DNA of 64,000 bases, taken from Octopus vulgaris (lineage: Eukaryota). The stretch spans positions 148,552,001 to 148,616,000 of the forward strand of contig OX597816.1 in assembly GCA_951406725.2 (NCBI GenBank), written 5' to 3'. Made by a program: the position numbers and the translations under genes. A model generated the notes under the pieces. It saw only the letters and a list, made by a program, of their open reading frames with translations. It had not been told where the DNA came from and ran no database searches. Below are positions 24,685 through 54,728 of this stretch, in pieces; the first letter of the stretch is position 1; each line of letters opens with the position of its first letter.

Positions 24685-27214
24685 TGGTAACAACTCAACC
24701 ATTCGATCCTTGACGGACCCAAATGGTCGATTAGTAAACGAACCCGAGGAAATGTGCAAGGTGTTTCACGATCATTTCGCCCAGCTATTCGGGAGGAGCG
24801 GCGGACTGGAGCGCGGGGAGGAGCGGCGGACTGGAGCGCGGGGAGAAGCTCGCAGAATTCCTAGCCGGTTCGCCGCGTCTATCGAGGCTGGACGCGGAAT
24901 CTTGTGAGGCGCCGATCACATCCGAAGAAGTCGAGGATATGTTGGCAGACTGCGGCGGGGACAAATCGCCGGGACTCGATGGTCTGCCTTACGAACTCTA
25001 TAGTAGCATGCCAGACTTGTTTGGGCACCTACTTGCATGCGTGTACACCAACTGGCAGTAGAACGGGAGAATTCCTAAGTCTGTGAGCCGAGGGGTGGTA
25101 GCGCTGTTAAGAAAGGACCCAAACAAGGGGGATTTAATTGGTAATTTTCGGCCCATCACTCTGCTTAACGCAGAGTTGAAGATTTTGGCCAAGGTCTTGG
25201 CAAAAAGGTTGGCGCGGGTCGTGGGTGAACTTGTTGGCGAGGCGCAAACTTGCGCCATCCCTGGAAGGACCATCCACGACAATCTCCACTTTCTACGCTA
25301 TGCCTTAGAAAGGGTAAATAGGATTCCTGGCAAGGGTGGGGCTATGGTCCACTTGGACCAATCGAAAGCGTTTGATAGGGTGGACCATCAGTATCTGGCG
25401 GCAGTCCTCGCGGCGGCTGGCTTCGGCCCGACCTTCCGCGGATGGATCAACGCTTTATACAGCAACATCGAATCGGTAGCTCAGGTAAACGGTTTCTTTT
25501 CGAAGCCGTTCAGCATTGAACGTTCGGTACCTCAAGGGTGTCCTCTCTCTCTGCTTCTCTACGTTTTGGCCCTCGAGCCGTTGCTGAGGAGGTTGGAAAC
25601 TATGAGATGCACTCCGCAAGATCTAGGATGCGGAAAGTCAGCGTCGGCGTATGCGGACGACATCACCGTCATCGTTTCCCGAGTCGAGCACCTACAGTGG
25701 GTGGGTGAGGCCTTAAGGAACTATGACGCGGTGACAGGAGCGAAAGTCAACCGGAATAAATCGGTCGGCTTGCAACTCGGCACCTGGAGGGGCAAGTCGA
25801 TGTCTTCCGACAGCGTCGTAGGGCGTTGGACGGAAGAACCGGTAAAAATGCTTGGAATCTGGTTAGGTCCAGATCTCCAGATAGAGAAGAACTGGAGCGA
25901 GGTGGCGAGAAAGGTGGCTCTCCTAACTTAGACATGGTCTGAACGGAAGCTGTCCTTGAAAGGGAGGGCGGTGGTTGCAGAGGTGTTTATCGCCTCTGTA
26001 ATCACTTACCGCCTGACCGTCGTGCCTTGCCCCGATTCGTGGCTGAACAAACTGGAACGCATGCTCTTTCGCTTTTTGTAGAGGAGCAGCAGACCTCTTG
26101 TAAGACGCTCTATTTGCTGCCAAAAGCCGCTGAAGGGTGGGTTAGGGATGCCGTGACTAAAAATGCGCAGACATGCGCTCAGGCTTAGGCACCTCTGGCT
26201 TTACTTGGACGGTGAGCAGGTGTGGTCTCCGTTCGTCAAGCTGTTATTTCCACAGTTCACATCGTTTAACGAACTGAACCCATGGATCAAGTGTAGACCG
26301 AAGTTGGGCATGTGGCATGCAGAGTGCCATCAGGCACTCGTGCTTCTCTCCCAGTCGGGCAACGCCGGTGGCGGGGGTACTACCTCGTTCTTCTATAGAG
26401 GGTTAGTAGAGTTTAAGTGTGACGACGTCCTGGGAGAAACCCTGGGCTTCGAAAAAAATCAACTGGCCAGCCTGTTCCAAAGAACATTCGGTCCGGGGCC
26501 TATGGATAATTACCAAAAGTCCCTGTCCTGGCAATGTTACAGAGGAGCTTTACCGGTTCGAGATAAGTTCTTTAGACATGGGTGTGAACCTACACCGGTT
26601 TGTGCAAGATGTGAGAGGGACAGTGAAACTGTCCTGCACGCGATTGTGCAATGCCCCAAGGTGACTGAACTCTGGGTTTATGTCGAACACCTGCTGTCGC
26701 AAGAGTACAATTGTCGAGCGAATCTGTAATTAAGATAGTTCCGCCGACCTCCCTGAATAGGGAGGAGCGAGCCTGTTTTCTCTCGGTAGTTGCTATGGCG
26801 AAAGAAGTAGTGTGGAAGACGAGAGTAAAAGGAATTGCAACAGGCATGTTTATCTCCAGTCTCGAGCTAATCGACATTTTCGTTTTCCACATGAAACGGA
26901 AAATAAGGCTGGAGAAGAAATGCCTGTCGCAAAGTGTGTTTCGTAAAAGATGGGAGTCTATAGCAAGTACGTTGCGAGTGAAAGAACCTGTTTAATCGAG
27001 AATGCGAAAAAGGAGAAAGCAAAGTCTTCAGTGTGAGTATGTGGTTTGTGGGGTCAACGGCGTCCTCCGCTTCCTTTTTTGTTATTCACCCATTCTCATT
27101 TAATTGTATATATTTCAATTGTTTGTTTATTCATACGTTTCGTCTCATTCGATACCCTGACCCCAACGTTTGTTTTGTCCCCTCTTTTTCTCAACCTTAT
27201 GATGAATAAAGAAA
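24685..27214 (+). mobile_element. 5'-truncated Tx1/L1-clade LINE (RT, zinc knuckle, 3' UTR), pseudogenised, ending in (TC)n
   Basis: KSPGLDGLPYELY, NFRPITLLNAELKILAK, LDQSKAFDRVDH, SVPQGCPLS, SAYADDITV, CARC...HAIVQC. In-frame stops and a 25-bp duplication at 24791-24840. aataaagaaa precedes the TC repeat. Confidence 0.95.
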
Positions 27215-39989: not shown

Positions 39990-41035
39990 AGTGAGTAACT
40001 GGCCCCCTAGGAGCAGAAAACACCTGTTCCTATGAGATTCACGTTTTGAAAGTTTTTTTTAATATTTACTCCCGGTTTTCTACCGGCAGTGACGTCTATA
40101 TCTCTTTATCTATATCTCTCTATCCATCTCTATCTCTATATATATCTCTCTGTATCTATCTGTCTATAACTTATCTATCTATATCTATCTTATTTGTCTA
40201 CCTAAGTAGCTAGCTCTCTCCCTCTCTATCGTTTTCACTTTCATTTTTCAGACGCTATTGTTTCCACGGTAAGTTTTTCAATCGCTATTTACAAAAAACA
40301 ACGACAAATTACTGGCAGAAAGATGTTCACAATTACTGATGAAAGTAATTTCATACATAACTTACTGACAGAAGTAACTTCATAAATTTCACCTCAATCT
40401 GTACATTTCGTTAAATTTGCCAACAAATTTCTTATTTACTTTTGCAACGTTTTGTGTTTCTCTTTTGTTTGTTTTTGTTTTTTATGATGGAATTACTGGT
40501 GAAAGTAAGTTCATAATTTACTGACAGAAGTAACTTCAAAAACTTCACTTAAATATGCACACTTAGTTAATTTCCGTAAAAAATTCTTATTTACTTTTGC
40601 AACAGTTTTGTGTTTTTCTGTTGATAACGGCTTTTTTCCTGGTTCCTTCGATACTGGTTCTTTGGTTCACTGACAAATTTCGCTTCAACGTGTACAATTA
40701 TTTATTTTCCGTAAAAATTTTATTTACTTTCTGTCCGTTGTAGTAAGAAATATAGTGTCCGTTATCCAGTTATTTTCATTGTTTTCTATCTTCTGCACAC
40801 GTATATTTCTGTATACGTATATAACCATTCCTAGGAGGAAAGTGTCAAATTTGACTACAATGTCAAGGTCAGCCAAAAGAATGTCTCTCTCCGAGGAAAG
40901 AGAAGTAGCTGCAGAAAGGGAAGCATACCAAGAAACGAACCGACTGCGCACTACAAAAGCTAGAACATCTCCAATAGATGAACAGACGTATGCACGGCTG
41001 ACAAGGAATAGGATCTCCACTGCAGATCTTCTATT
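39990..41035 (+). mobile_element. Probable Helitron 5' fragment (microsatellite, diverged ~155-bp direct repeats, Rep-helicase-like N-terminus)
   Basis: 40827-41025 encodes IPRRKVSNLTTMSRSAKRMSLSEEREVAAEREAYQETNRLRTTKARTSPIDEQTYARL, like the R/E-rich start of animal Helitron ORFs. Repeats at about 40335-40470 vs 40492-40625. Confidence 0.5.
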
Positions 41036-41793: not shown

Positions 41794-41841
<48 letters not shown>

Positions 41842-41849
<8 letters not shown>

Positions 41850-42938
41850 AAAGGGCTTAGTAAAATAAATTACTTTGCCGCATAATGAACTCATTAGAAA
41901 TAGCAGCTAAAAAACTTTTTTAAAACTATTTCTAATACTTAAAGAAAACCTCTCTCATATAGTGTTTGCTCAATTTAACTCACGAAAGTATATATATATA
42001 TATATATTATACTCGACACTTCTATCATCAGCTCAGAATTATATGAAAACACTGAAAGTGGGAGCATACCCTTTCGGCTTCTTATCGCTTCTGAAGATCT
42101 GCTCGAAACTAACAGTGCCAGCAAACTCAAAAATGCAAGCGAAGAATTTCTGCTCTCCCCTTTCCACCAGCATGGGTTAAAATCAGTAAACACTATGCTT
42201 ATTTCGGTAAAATCCGAAGCATTAATTAGAGAGATTAATTATAATTTCAACAATTGAGGGTAAAATTAATTAATTATTAATCAATTTCACCAAGTGTTCA
42301 GTATGCAAAGGGACCATTTAAGGCGAATTCAAATTATTACATTATATAAAAGGGCTTAGTAAAATAAATTACTTTGCCGCATACTGAACTCATTAGAAAT
42401 AGCAGCTAAAAAACTTTTTTAAAAGTGTTTTTTCAGTGTTTTCAAATCCAAACCAAATAAAGGGGAGAGCAGAAATTCTTCGCTTGCATTTTTGAGTTTG
42501 CTGGCACTGTTAGTTTCGAGCAGATCTTCAGAAGCGATAAGAAGCCGAAAGGGTATGCTCCCACTTTCAGTGTTTTCAAATCCAAACCAAGGAATTCTGA
42601 GCTGATGATAGAAGTGTCGAGTTTTTGACTAATCTTGAAACGTACGTTCTCAAATAACCTTTGCATTTGATTTTTTGATGTCTTTACCCCCATACTTTCG
42701 TGAGTTAAATTGAGCAAACACTATATGAGAGAGGTTTTCTTTAAGTATTAGAAATAGTTTTAAAAAAGTTTTTTAGCTGCTATTTCTAATGAGTTCAGTA
42801 TGCGGCAAAGTAATTTATTTTACTAAGCCCTTTTATATAATGTAATAATTTGAATTCGCCTTAAATGGTCCCTTTGCATACTGAACACTTGGTGAAATTG
42901 ATTAATAATTAATTAATTTTACCCTCAATTGTTGAAAT
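41842..42938. mobile_element. Young fold-back, circularly permuted hammerhead element in (TA)n
   Basis: 41842-41989, 42010-42040, 42044-42163 and 42244-42424 are near-perfect reverse complements of 42692-42840, 42593-42622, 42458-42578 and 42759-42938. Confidence 0.9.
42596..42654 (+). ncRNA. Type-I minimal hammerhead ribozyme motif
   Basis: tgag-CTGATGA(42602)-T-AGA..GTCGAG..TTTGAC..TCT-T-GAAAC(42637)-GTAC-GTT-ctca. Stem I tgag/ctca; palindromic stem III AACGTACGTT. Confidence 0.75.
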
Positions 42939-45900
42939 ATATATATATATATATATAGCGAGACCGAATGGAAGACAAGACAAAAATAAATGCATACACC
43001 CTGCTATGCATTTAACATCAAAATTTATATATCAAATATGTATATTGAAAACAAGTCTGTAACTTTACATATATTCACACTCGCATACAGACGCTTCAAC
43101 ACACACACATGCACACTCATACGCACGCGCACAAATACGTATAATTATATACGTGTGTGTAGCTATTAACATAGGTAACATTAGAAATCCACGATTTATA
43201 TATGTTATATATGTGTGTGTATGTGATCACGTGTGAGTGTGGCTGTTATAACCACCATATTTTCAATATGATTGTTTTGTATCTGAAAACGCCACCAAGA
43301 TTTAGCCAGAAGGCACCGTTATATTTAAATTACTTCTCTAAATATGTTACCTTTGTAGCGTGCCCAACATATTGTACACCTCGGAAAATAATATTTACCT
43401 CTGGAAACCAATAAATTTTCGCTAAATAATTAAAAAAAAAACTCTTTTCCTAATAAAGAAAAAATAAAGGAATAAATCAACTATGTACCCTCTAAACACA
43501 AAATTAAGCAAATTTTTAAAATCAATTTCGATATAAATTTATTAAAAGCAATTTATTTAATAAATATATTTTTAAATATTTTAAAATCCAAATACTTATC
43601 GGGGATTTTTTTTTAATTAAATACAAACTATAAAAATAGCCTCATGCCAATCGAAAGATTACATTTGATAGACATTCGTTGTAGGCTAAGGTGATTGTTT
43701 CGACTAGAGAGTCGATGGTTCAAATTTTGTCACCACTGTTTTGCACTTACGTCTCGCTGCTCCTGACTACATACAACTCACTTTGTGAAGCAGCAAGAGT
43801 TCGATGTGAATGACTAATGTTCTGTTAGCTTGCACTGGTAATAAAAACTCGATCCACAGAAATTTTTCCAAAGAATCCCTGTAGAGAACCTATTACTTAC
43901 ATCACTGACTCGATGAAGATCTGTGTTTTTAAGAAACTATTTAAAGTATTTTGTTATCAATGCTAATGCATCTTTTGACTAGTAAGGAAAAGATACTTCT
44001 AATATTCCAGCTTTCTTGAAAGAAAGTGACATAGCTACAACAGAGATTCGAACTAGAGTCAGTGATTAGATACGTCGAATATTTTTCGTACACACTAAGG
44101 CGTGTCATGTCTCTATACTTAAGTTTTTATAACATATAGGATCCTTTGTTTTTTGTTTCTGTTTTTAGTTATGGTCTTTTTTCTACTAAGCAATTTCTTT
44201 TTATTTTATGATGCAATGCATTGCTATAAAACTGATCTCTGTTATTGACATTACAGTATTAGATGTTCATTTCTGGAATCTACATTCGATAGAATTAAAT
44301 ATAAAAAAAAAATTGCAATAATCAAGAATGTTTGAATAATGTATATACTTTACTTCCTTCTATATATTAGCCATTAATTTAACTACATCTTGGCAGATAT
44401 ATTATTAGTGATGTCCGTCCAACAATCCACTAAAGGGTAGGTTCACATTTCTAAACAAACCTATCAGGGCAACACAACGCGAAAGCTATCAAATTTCCAC
44501 TTTCTTTCAATTGTTTGACATAATTGCATTCATGTACTCACTCCTTATACGAATTTGATCGAAATGGGATGGTTTTCATCTGCCTATGCTGAAATATACG
44601 CAGTAAATTTAGTTAGTTTCAATATGGAAGAATTTTAATTGCCATATATGATTGGCATTAGTTATTGCGTGTCGATGTCATAGATATTGCAAGCTGGCAG
44701 ATGGGTAACTTTTTCTTCCTATTGGATTTCTATGATTCAGCAAGCAAATATATTTTATCATATATCATTAAAAGCTAGAACAACGACTGAATCTCGTAAT
44801 CGACAGCATCGACAACAGTAACTCCTCCAACAGCATCTTGAAAAACAACTTCAACAGCATAAATAATAAACATTTTTTTTAAAAAAAACACATTTTCAAG
44901 TTTAGTTTATTTTATATTTGTTTATATTGCCTTCGGGCATTATTCAACATGGAGAATATGTTTTTGTATTCATTTACTGCTATTTCACAATAAAGTAAAA
45001 TAAACTATATCTGCGCCGACTATGATTGGTTGGTTAGTTTAATACACACTTCTTATTGTGTGGTATAAAATTGATTTTTGCAGAAAGAAAACTTTTTTGT
45101 ATATAACATATTTGCAGAATTATACACTAAAATATGCGCTTATTCAAAATGACAACGAAAAAGAGGGCTTGTGGCACATTAAAAATATTAGTTCCAGATG
45201 AAGTGTCTCTTATTTCTGTTTCTTTTACACCTGCAACTATTTTATTTCTACTATTTTTATCAAAACAGGATATCAATATATTTACTATTACTGTTCAAGC
45301 TACGTGATACAGCTACTGCCTTCCTTTTTAGTTCTGACGTGTCTTACTCGTAAAACCTCGTTGTAGTCACTTTGTATAATCCTTACAATCCAGAACCAGA
45401 GCCCTACTTTCTCTTTCTCTGCTCATGTTTTCCCTACAAGCACCAGTCTATGAATGTACAAACAAAACATCAACTGCATACAGTTCTGTATTGTAGAATA
45501 GGTTTCTAGTGTTGGGGACACTGCCCTTTCTTTTCAGATTGTGCTGGTATACATACTGCTATATGTATTCGTGTGTGTTGACGGTGGACGTCATTAATCT
45601 CCCCCATAAAATATCACCTTAATCCGTAGCAGAAAAAGATTAATATTTATGATGTATTTCTTTAATAAACTCATCCTTATACTTTCTCTTCCCCTCCTAA
45701 TAGTTGGTAGTAAAATTGTAAGTAGAACCGTGTTGTCTTCCTCACTACTATGCCCTCCAAAGGAGCACGTATTTATCAGAGTAAACTTACGAAACACCGT
45801 TATTACATGTTATTAGGTATTAGATATTACAAGCAACTACTTTAAGTATTAGAGGGAGCAAACGACCGTTAATTGAACAAGAGACAAGTATCAAAAACAT

Positions 45901-53301: not shown

Positions 53302-54728
53302 TTAGGTTGGCAACTAAGCTCCTGCGGGTTTTTTTTCAATTTAAACTTTTAAAAAAGGTTTAATAAACAATAACAGTTAATTAATCAATAATGTATTCAC
53401 CCTTGTTGTTTATAAATTCTTCCCAACGTTCAACAAGATTTTCAATACTTCGTTGGTAAAAGTCACCCGATTTCGACTCGAAAAATTAATCCAACCAAGC
53501 TCTCAATTCTGCATCAGTATTGAACGAAACTTCGCGCATAGCATTTGAAAGCGATCGAAAGAGGTGGAAATCCATTGGTGCCAAATCAGAATACAGCGGG
53601 TATGGAAGCACTTCCCAGACATGCGTTTGAATGGCTTCCTTGGTCATATTGGCGATATGAGGGCGGCCGTTGTCGTGCAGCAGAAGAACTCCATGTGTAA
53701 CTGTATTTCGTCTGTCGTTACGTTCTGAGTTCAAATTCCGTCGAGGTCGACTTTGCCTTTCATCCTTTCGGGGTCGATAAATTAAGTACCAGTTACGCAC
53801 TGGAGTCGATATAATCGACTTAATCCGTTTGTCTTTCCTTGTTTGTCCCCTCTATGTTTAGCCCCTTTTGGGCAATAAAGAAATAGGAAGAACTCCATGC
53901 TGCCCATTAGGTCTTTTCTCTTGAATAGCCGTGTTGAGACAATTCGTAATGGATAATCCCTTCCCAATCCCACAACATCATTTTACGTGGATGAAAATCT
54001 TGTTTCACACGCAATGTCGCTTGTTTACCAGGGCTAAGCCATTCCTTACGCTGCTTCATATTAATGCACAGGCACCATTTTTCGTCGCCAGTAACGATTC
54101 GGTAAAGAAATCGTTGCTTGTGTCCATGAGTTGAGTGGTGAGGAGCAAGCAAACCAGCGGAGATTGTGGCTCGTTGATTTTTGTTGTTGTCACTTAAAGC
54201 ATGTGGATCCCATGCTTCATACTTCTGAACCTTTCCCATCGAGTGAAGATGCTTCTCTATAGCAATATGGGAGCATTCCATTTTCTCTGCCAGTTCTCTT
54301 GTCGTTTGACGAGAATTTTCCTGCAAAAGTTGGTTTAATCGTTCTTCATCGAACTCAACTGGGCGGCCAAAATTTGAGGTCAAAATTTCCATTTTTTAAC
54401 TTGGCACACCAATCATGAGCGGTTCTTTCAGCTATGGCACCCTCTCCATACACAGCACAAATGTCGCGAGCAGCTTTTGCGGCCTTAGGACCTTGATTAA
54501 AAGCAAAAAGAAAGAGGTATCGAAAATGCTCGTTTTTCTTAACTTGACATTCCATTTTAATGATCTGAAAATAAACAAGATTTAACTAAAATTAACTAGA
54601 AAAAAAAAAACAAAATAGATTCCAAAACGATTCAAAAATAGAATTCTCGAAAAAGATAGATTCCAAAATTTAAAAACGCAATAAATTCCAAAATTTAAAA
54701 TAAAGCAGGAATTTAGTTGCCAACCCAA
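53302..54728 (-). mobile_element. Full-length mariner (DD34D) transposon, pseudogenised, with nested SINE
   Basis: TIRs ttaggttggcaactaagctcctgc / gcaggaatttagttgccaacccaa with TA on both sides. Motifs MECQVKKNEHFR, WDPHAL, IVTGDEKW, LLHDNGRPH, YSDLAPMDFHLF and NKGEYIID*. Confidence 0.95.
53696..53886 (+). mobile_element. 5'-truncated SINE family A (Tx1-like tail) inside the mariner
   Basis: Aligns with 24110-24300. 13-bp TSD gaagaactccatg at 53683-53695 and 53887-53899. Confidence 0.92.

Follow-up and report, generated by a model that had tools for sequence, protein, structure and literature searches.

Anatomy of the octopus insertion

The window, that is, the whole 64,000-nucleotide stretch of Octopus vulgaris DNA analysed here (contig OX597816.1, positions 148,552,001 to 148,616,000), carries at its positions 41842–42938 two head-to-head arms of a non-coding 560-bp repeat, inserted into a (TA)n tract. 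The parts of the insertion and its flanks are listed below in window coordinates.

41795–41841, no strand: left (TA)n target tract
41842–41991, minus strand: outer part of the minus arm (the short-site arm), unit positions about 232–381, its end being the S site; equal to 42692–42841 with 1 mismatch in 150
41992–42010, no strand: TA-rich filler replacing 69 nt (42623–42691), whereby the second hammerhead loses its GAAA, stem III and cut site
42011–42043, minus strand: 5' half of the second, disrupted hammerhead, in which 30 nt match 42593–42622 exactly and 3 nt replace 42579–42592
42044–42163, minus strand: unit positions 1–120 of the minus arm, 120/120 against 42459–42578
42164–42243, minus strand: 80-bp segment completing the 560-bp unit (about 481–560), found in all genomic tandem arrays examined
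42244–42424, minus strand: inner part of the minus arm, from the preceding unit (about 297–480), 181/181 against 42758–42938
42425–42458, plus strand: head-to-head junction including a 26-nt duplicate
42459–42938, plus strand: plus arm (the long-site arm), unit 1–480, intact across the predicted cut site, with 117 scored genomic matches
42589–42661, plus strand: type I hammerhead, predicted cut after 42648
42747–42790, plus strand: hairpin of self-complementary sequence lying upstream of the S site, with the 3' arm in a stretch common to related families
42842–42938, plus strand: the tail, about 98 nt between the S (about 42841–42844) and L (about 42936–42938) end sites
42939–42957, no strand: right (TA)n target tract

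A first-pass annotation of this DNA had claimed that the minus arm repeats the end of the plus unit and then runs through an 80-bp linker, and exact matching bears this out: minus-strand 42424 to 42244 is identical to 42758–42938 over 181 of 181 nt, and 42243–42164 is an 80-bp piece without counterpart in the plus arm. The arm was further said to resume the plus-unit start at 42458; the identity of 42163 to 42044 with 42459–42578 (120 of 120 nt) upholds the resumption, but the true start is 42459, one base off. The claimed monomer of about 560 nt also holds, as 480 + 80 = 560 matches the 558–564-bp period of the genomic arrays. That the element crosses its own monomer junction, on a tandem or circular template, stands as far as the template is concerned. 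However, the junction at 42244/42243 is the main 3' start site of copying (the L site) and not the ribozyme cut, and therefore indicates that the template was tandem or circular but does not discriminate between the two. Farther out, the minus arm extends to 41842 (150 nt, 1 mismatch), and its hammerhead is disrupted twice, 14 nt being replaced by 3 nt and 69 nt by a TA tract. At the arm junction, 42431–42456 is a templated duplicate of 42565–42590 (26 nt, unit positions 108–133).

The closest sibling of the window copy is at locus L002. Two A/G changes in stem I of the hammerhead distinguish the arms of L002, one of which stops at unit position 133, a point that it has in common with the duplicate at the arm junction of the window copy. 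Elsewhere in the window, Pfam detects fragments of a LINE-type reverse transcriptase with zf-RVT at 25062–26729 (plus strand) and of a Mariner-type transposase (PF01359) at 53907–54395 (minus strand), and 40307–40720 holds diverged repeats that are spaced by 135–160 bp and 74–82% alike.

The hammerhead and its family

The plus arm contains a type I hammerhead motif with the core CUGAUGA at 42602–42608, GAAA at 42637–42640, the palindrome ACGUACGU at 42640–42647 and the triplet GUU (GUA in other copies) at 42646–42648. The predicted cut follows 42648, so that the predicted RNA monomer would begin at 42649. Stem I is UGAG/CUCA, extended by AAGG/CCUU; stem II opens with a U.U mismatch, followed by AGA/UCU, an internal loop and GUC/GAC. 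GUU is a poorly cut triplet. The well-formed hammerhead with palindromic stem III that had been placed at 42596–42654 is confirmed as a motif, and a 28-nt piece of it has 1,783 exact matches in the 2.8-Gb genome against 0 for the reversed control. Rfam reports no hammerhead in the window, nor in 41980–42940 up to E 10, and the modelled free fold of the window copy differs from the active fold.

Core positions C3 to A9 are invariant in 97 of 97 loci apart from the free N7 (U or A), the CUGA–GA core positions lying outside the search patterns used to collect the loci. Across the same 97 loci H17 is U or A and never G, the distal loop is variable, and the pair 161/167 is kept throughout as C-G, U.G or U-A. 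At the U.U mismatch, 18 of 19 changes create a pair, which represents a few subfamily events rather than 18 independent ones. Core motif, conservation and pair-keeping changes support a putative hammerhead that is conserved exactly where catalysis needs it, self-cleavage itself being a prediction from sequence. A palindromic stem III has been described as working in dimers (PMC4209133), and U.U at the base of stem II has been described for the axolotl retrozyme HHR_Amex2 (PMC7229834).

The first 100 of the 1,783 matches listed fall into 38 loci within 113 Mb, a density that by extrapolation corresponds to some 700–900 loci. The best of the 117 scored genomic matches of the plus arm, at L002, shows 100% identity across 459 nt, and the family is therefore young. 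A shorter pattern has 254 matches with a different base in the cut triplet, and the first 100 of them listed all have A; these GUA copies belong mostly to a subfamily with a period of 545–546 bp. The first-pass annotation had proposed a recently active retrozyme-like or solo-pLTR family (pLTR, the terminal repeat of Penelope elements) and a young insertion, and had suggested counting genomic tandem arrays. Arrays do occur with periods of 558–564 bp and 545–546 bp and up to about 14 units, an arm of at least two units being present in 10 of 38 census loci; together with near-identical copies and no ORF, they agree with the retrozyme-like part of that proposal. The unit has a GC content of 33%, and its longest stop-to-stop frames are 74 and 101 aa. 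There is no LTR pair, insertions ending instead at fixed internal sites. When the unit is opened at the cut site, its predicted fold has z = -6.6 relative to shuffles. By its type I hammerhead, tandem units, low GC and lack of an ORF, the repeat is classed, on its genomic copies, as a new family of animal non-LTR retrozymes.

The longest array (L182, at 97.078–97.086 Mb of contig C3 in genome G000) has 14 units with recurrent unit variants at a rough three-unit spacing, one site varying in units 2, 5 and 8; the spacing hints at a trimer template or higher-order expansion. Two other long arrays are near-uniform, one of 12 units with 0 and one of 11 units with 2 variable sites, one of the two being bounded by unread bases. 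Divergence within a locus is lower than that to the nearest locus in just 40 of 67 two-armed loci and therefore does not single out a circle over a tandem template. Contigs of four runs, whose RNA origin is a guess, cover 22–30 of 30 bins, the unit junction being spanned by some of them; they show no ends, strand or level and have no silent-stretch control, and so do not count here as evidence of expression. An ADAR editing footprint in the DNA copies was ruled out, A>G and T>C changes numbering 21 each.

A second retrozyme-like family of about 600 bp (L111–L140 and L154, on many contigs) was found through a common 3' region that is 65–72% like that of the 560-bp family, with 30 loci collected and 2,060 first-look candidates. 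Its hammerhead combines the same ACGUACGU palindrome with GUC as the triplet and has a long stem II, and its stem I differs from that of the 560-bp family yet is still paired. Further diverged relatives (60–78%) with the common 3' region, each inserted in TA tracts, lie at L068:2505–2780, L087:292–525, L098:6673–6816, L214 and L223. The diverged relatives are, on their similarity, a superfamily with a putatively conserved recognition end. About 40 solitary and mutually unlike hammerhead motifs at L218–L247, not in tandem, carry the same palindrome and mostly a GUA triplet; they are probably old Penelope ends.

End sites, arms and coding Penelope-like elements

A total of 98 non-redundant loci, chosen for containing the hammerhead, were mapped: 35 best hits, 38 from an unbiased census covering contig C1 over its first 113 Mb, 22 GUA-subfamily loci and 3 others. 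L211 and L230, cut off inside arrays, and L223, consisting of short pieces, were excluded. Two head-to-head arms are present in 67 of the 98 loci (26 of 38 in the census). Outer ends occur at two sites about 98 nt apart, the L site around unit position 480 and the S site around 382, and all 62 two-armed loci with classifiable ends combine one L with one S end, with no L+L and no S+S; the remaining 5 have one odd end each. The 31 single-armed loci end at L (17), S (10) or elsewhere (4). A (TA)n tract, scored as (TA)4, adjoins 129 of 134 outer ends of two-armed loci; because both flanks are (TA)n, a target-site duplication is unreadable. The 600-bp family follows the same pattern, with L+S in 11 loci and no L+L.

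Inner ends, by comparison, are dispersed along the unit (chi-square p 0.18). Such a pattern, in which 3' ends are fixed and 5' ends vary, has the polarity of reverse transcription. Microhomology of at least 2 nt is present in 24 of 38 insert-free junctions, against 19% for random joins, and an insert was scored in 29 of 67 junctions, some of these being merely mismatches to the references. Of the 176 arms in this sample, which was selected for the presence of the hammerhead, 152 extend across the cut site; just 2 of 134 inner ends fit it, with 0.56 expected. The template was therefore a circle or an uncut tandem RNA, and a cut linear monomer is ruled out.

In 15 of the 62 loci, including the window, each arm has sequence absent from the other, so that neither can have served as the template of its partner and the insertion requires two primings; the geometry of the other 47 fits either two primings or the copying of one arm. 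Two primings per two-armed insertion are accordingly regarded as probable for the family. Both arms stop at one point of one unit in 11 of 62 loci, and the inner ends lie within 15 nt of the same unit position in 14 of 67 junctions (3.7 expected); shared stops are expected with two reverse transcriptases on one RNA, or after fold-back. In L1 twin priming, two target ends prime one insertion, giving a head-to-head inversion with a microhomology join, and the second site is variable and lies at the inversion point. The 560-bp family is like it in the two-ended priming proposed here and in its microhomology joins, and unlike it in that the second site is fixed. Arrest of the L arm at the S site in the manner of L1 is ruled out, since 4 of 62 L-arm inner ends lie there and 3.4 are expected.

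At least two young coding Penelope-like families are present in the genome, and both end in (TA)n at two sites. One (L091–L096 and L103–L105) has many intact 781-aa RT/GIY-YIG frames, which appear Neptune-like by their zinc-finger linker, and, upstream and overlapping, a 479-aa frame for which Pfam gives nothing above cut-off. Its hammerhead is minimal and degenerate (core UUGAUAA, palindrome ACAUGU), its tail is 35 nt long, and the single two-armed locus seen is L+S. The other (L171–L178, L188–L189) has a 717-aa frame, 2.6-kb tandems and inverted arms, and appears Hydra-like by resemblance to the description in PMC8557442; its hammerhead has the core CCGAAGA and a GUU triplet, its tail is about 70–85 nt, and its two-armed loci are L+S in 7 of 8 and S+S in 1 of 8.

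The first-pass annotation had held that the retrozyme-like reading would fail if all other copies were attached to a coding Penelope element and no circular or monomer-length RNA existed, and on the DNA side none of the 98 loci is joined in register to a Penelope ORF. Unrelated Penelope fragments lie near 3 of the 98, separated from them by TA tracts, and homologous pieces beside Penelope-like ORFs were rejected as partner ends, being separate insertions in TA tracts. Comparison of five coding Penelope-like ends with the tail of the 560-bp family gave similarities no better than shuffles (z -0.8 to 1.4), and none of about 110 loci with Penelope-like hits holds the 560-bp sequence in register. 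Among these ends and loci there is thus no sign in sequence that the repeat derives from a named Penelope-like element. The partner search scored 150 of 6,136 candidate places for GIY-YIG and 150 of 9,462 for the Hydra-like protein, and Poseidon, Nematis and Naiad types lay outside the queries. Hammerhead patterns excluding the two main families gave 7 and 41 matches; neither in the 37 loci examined among them nor in 60 further stretches was there a coding element with the end of the 560-bp family.

A proposed two-ended copying model for the retrozyme

Non-LTR retrozymes are tandem type I hammerhead repeats with linear and circular RNA, for which Penelope elements have been proposed as movers (Cervera and de la Pena 2020, PMC7229834). 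Retrozymes have since been linked to Penelope pLTRs, with cleavage in vitro in 1 of 9 dimers and none in 8 of 9 (Li, Clavereau and Pollet 2026, bioRxiv 10.64898/2026.07.22.740005). The octopus family resembles animal non-LTR retrozymes in its non-coding, low-GC tandem units with one type I hammerhead each and a short palindrome-capped stem III, and resembles axolotl HHR_Amex2 in the U.U mismatch at the base of stem II (PMC7229834). Its unit of 560 nt differs from the 150–450 nt given in 2020 and is to be set against 51–972 nt in 2026, and its GUU/GUA triplet is a further difference. Two-armed insertions, fixed end sites and TA targets, as seen here, are not described for retrozymes in the accessible text of PMC7229834 or of the 2026 preprint. 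Circles and cleavage have been demonstrated for published retrozymes and are predictions for the octopus family. The words hammerhead, ribozyme and retrozyme are absent from the main text of the 2026 octopus repeat annotation (PMC13282606), as far as it is accessible.

Penelope elements have inverted 5' copies, a tail that is often one-ended, and TA targets (PMC8557442), and pairs of hammerheads on opposite strands 100–700 bp apart were noted in 2014 (PMC4209133). The octopus repeat is like the EN+ Penelope-like elements Neptune and Hydra in its partial tandems, inverted 5'-truncated copy, one-ended tail, (TA)n targets and hammerhead near the 3' end (PMC8557442; PMC4209133). It is unlike them in having no RT/GIY-YIG ORF, a tail of 98 nt rather than 30–40, and no match to the coding families tested. 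The Poseidon enzyme PAc of the anole, predicted to be a dimer, cuts and extends both strands from two internal RNA start sites, and it inserts without need of ribozyme cleavage, unprocessed RNA being its main substrate (PMC11167929). Both systems have two internal start sites of reverse transcription that define the tail and, on the model proposed for the octopus family, a cut in AT-rich DNA, extension of both strands and a dimeric enzyme. As far as described, however, PAc shows no difference in start site between strands, whereas the arms of the 560-bp family always use different sites; and the PAc sites belong to an AC-rich stem-loop that is part of the ORF, whereas both sites of the 560-bp family are UA-rich and could pair with a TA primer (PMC11167929).

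These resemblances suggest that the 560-bp family very probably owes its mobility to Penelope-type enzymes and likely works like a non-autonomous Penelope derivative. We cautiously favour, as a whole, an account in which a hammerhead retrozyme is copied by a Penelope-like enzyme from both ends of a cut (TA)n tract. Tandem arrays would be transcribed, and it seems marginally probable that neighbouring hammerheads pair via the ACGUACGU palindrome and release 560-nt monomers, slowly because of the GUU triplet, for a host ligase to circularise. A dimeric Penelope-type RT/GIY-YIG protein would bind the conserved 3' region and cut a (TA)n tract, and both DNA ends would prime reverse transcription, one cDNA starting from L and one from S. 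The cDNAs would differ in how far they extend, continuing beyond the cut site and going round the unit as many as 13 times, and the cDNA ends would be joined head-to-head by microhomology or a short templated patch. More tentatively, one dimeric enzyme may hold a single 560-nt circle and prime on it from both ends of a broken TA tract at the two fixed sites, both active sites then rolling round it and displacing each other's cDNA, which would yield inverted arrays of up to 13 units in one step.

The identity of the template is where this account meets its most serious rival. The same enzyme might copy an uncut linear read-through of a tandem array, the hammerhead being idle, no circle being formed and the arrays lengthening later by DNA recombination. 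We consider this unlikely, although it would explain why ends do not pile up at the cut site and why most copies have the weak GUU triplet, and it agrees with the preference of the anole enzyme for unprocessed RNA (PMC11167929) and with the recurrent variants of L182, whose rough three-unit spacing is as in DNA-level expansion or a mixed multimer. However, an idle hammerhead is at odds with conservation at the positions required for catalysis. The two near-uniform long arrays (12 units with 0 and 11 with 2 variable sites, one bounded by unread bases) also speak against it, and each round of copying from a linear template could only shorten arrays. A different rival retains the enzyme and reduces the primings to one, the inverted arm arising by fold-back of the first cDNA or by second-strand copying and a nuclease trimming it at the other site. 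The tail has indeed been ascribed to endonuclease resolution (PMC8557442), 47 of 62 loci are geometrically compatible, and the excess of junctions with nearby inner ends (14 of 67, 3.7 expected) would be accounted for; but two reverse transcriptases on one RNA also give shared stop points, and the private sequence of each arm in 15 of 62 loci, the window among them, makes a single priming improbable.

The two remaining rivals concern what the repeat is. That it consists of truncated ends (solo pLTRs) of a coding Penelope element yet to be found would fit its Penelope-type ends, tail and hammerhead, and the partner search scored just 150 of 6,136 and 150 of 9,462 candidate Penelope places. Yet the units are directly head-to-tail without coding sequence, and in none of the 98 loci is the repeat in register with a Penelope ORF, so that we regard this as very improbable. 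We give still less credence to the idea that the repeat is a satellite or a MITE-like fold-back element working at the DNA level, its hammerhead being a passenger or a chance motif. Inverted arms, tandem arrays and the lack of an Rfam match are what such an element would present, but the arms are of unequal and variable length, the fixed 3' and scattered 5' ends have the polarity of reverse transcription, and the conservation of the motif obeys hammerhead rules.

The class, the Penelope link and one-ended tails are already in print, and what is added here is detail on mechanism rather than another kind of element. Neither a strict one-long-one-short rule nor two-ended priming for retrozymes was found in the literature searched, and the supplements of the 2026 preprint may list such families. 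How retrozymes re-enter the genome and how the tandem and inverted structures of Penelope elements arise are stated as open in the accessible text of PMC7229834, PMC8557442 and the 2026 preprint. The 560-bp family offers a short, non-coding RNA whose two start sites are exactly mapped, a natural contrast between GUU and GUA, and two intact candidate enzymes in the same genome, and these features make such questions of retrozyme and Penelope mobility testable in vitro. If the reading with one dimeric enzyme on a single circle is true, the one-long-one-short rule, common to the coding elements, would be a general explanation of Penelope inverted repeats and one-ended tails.
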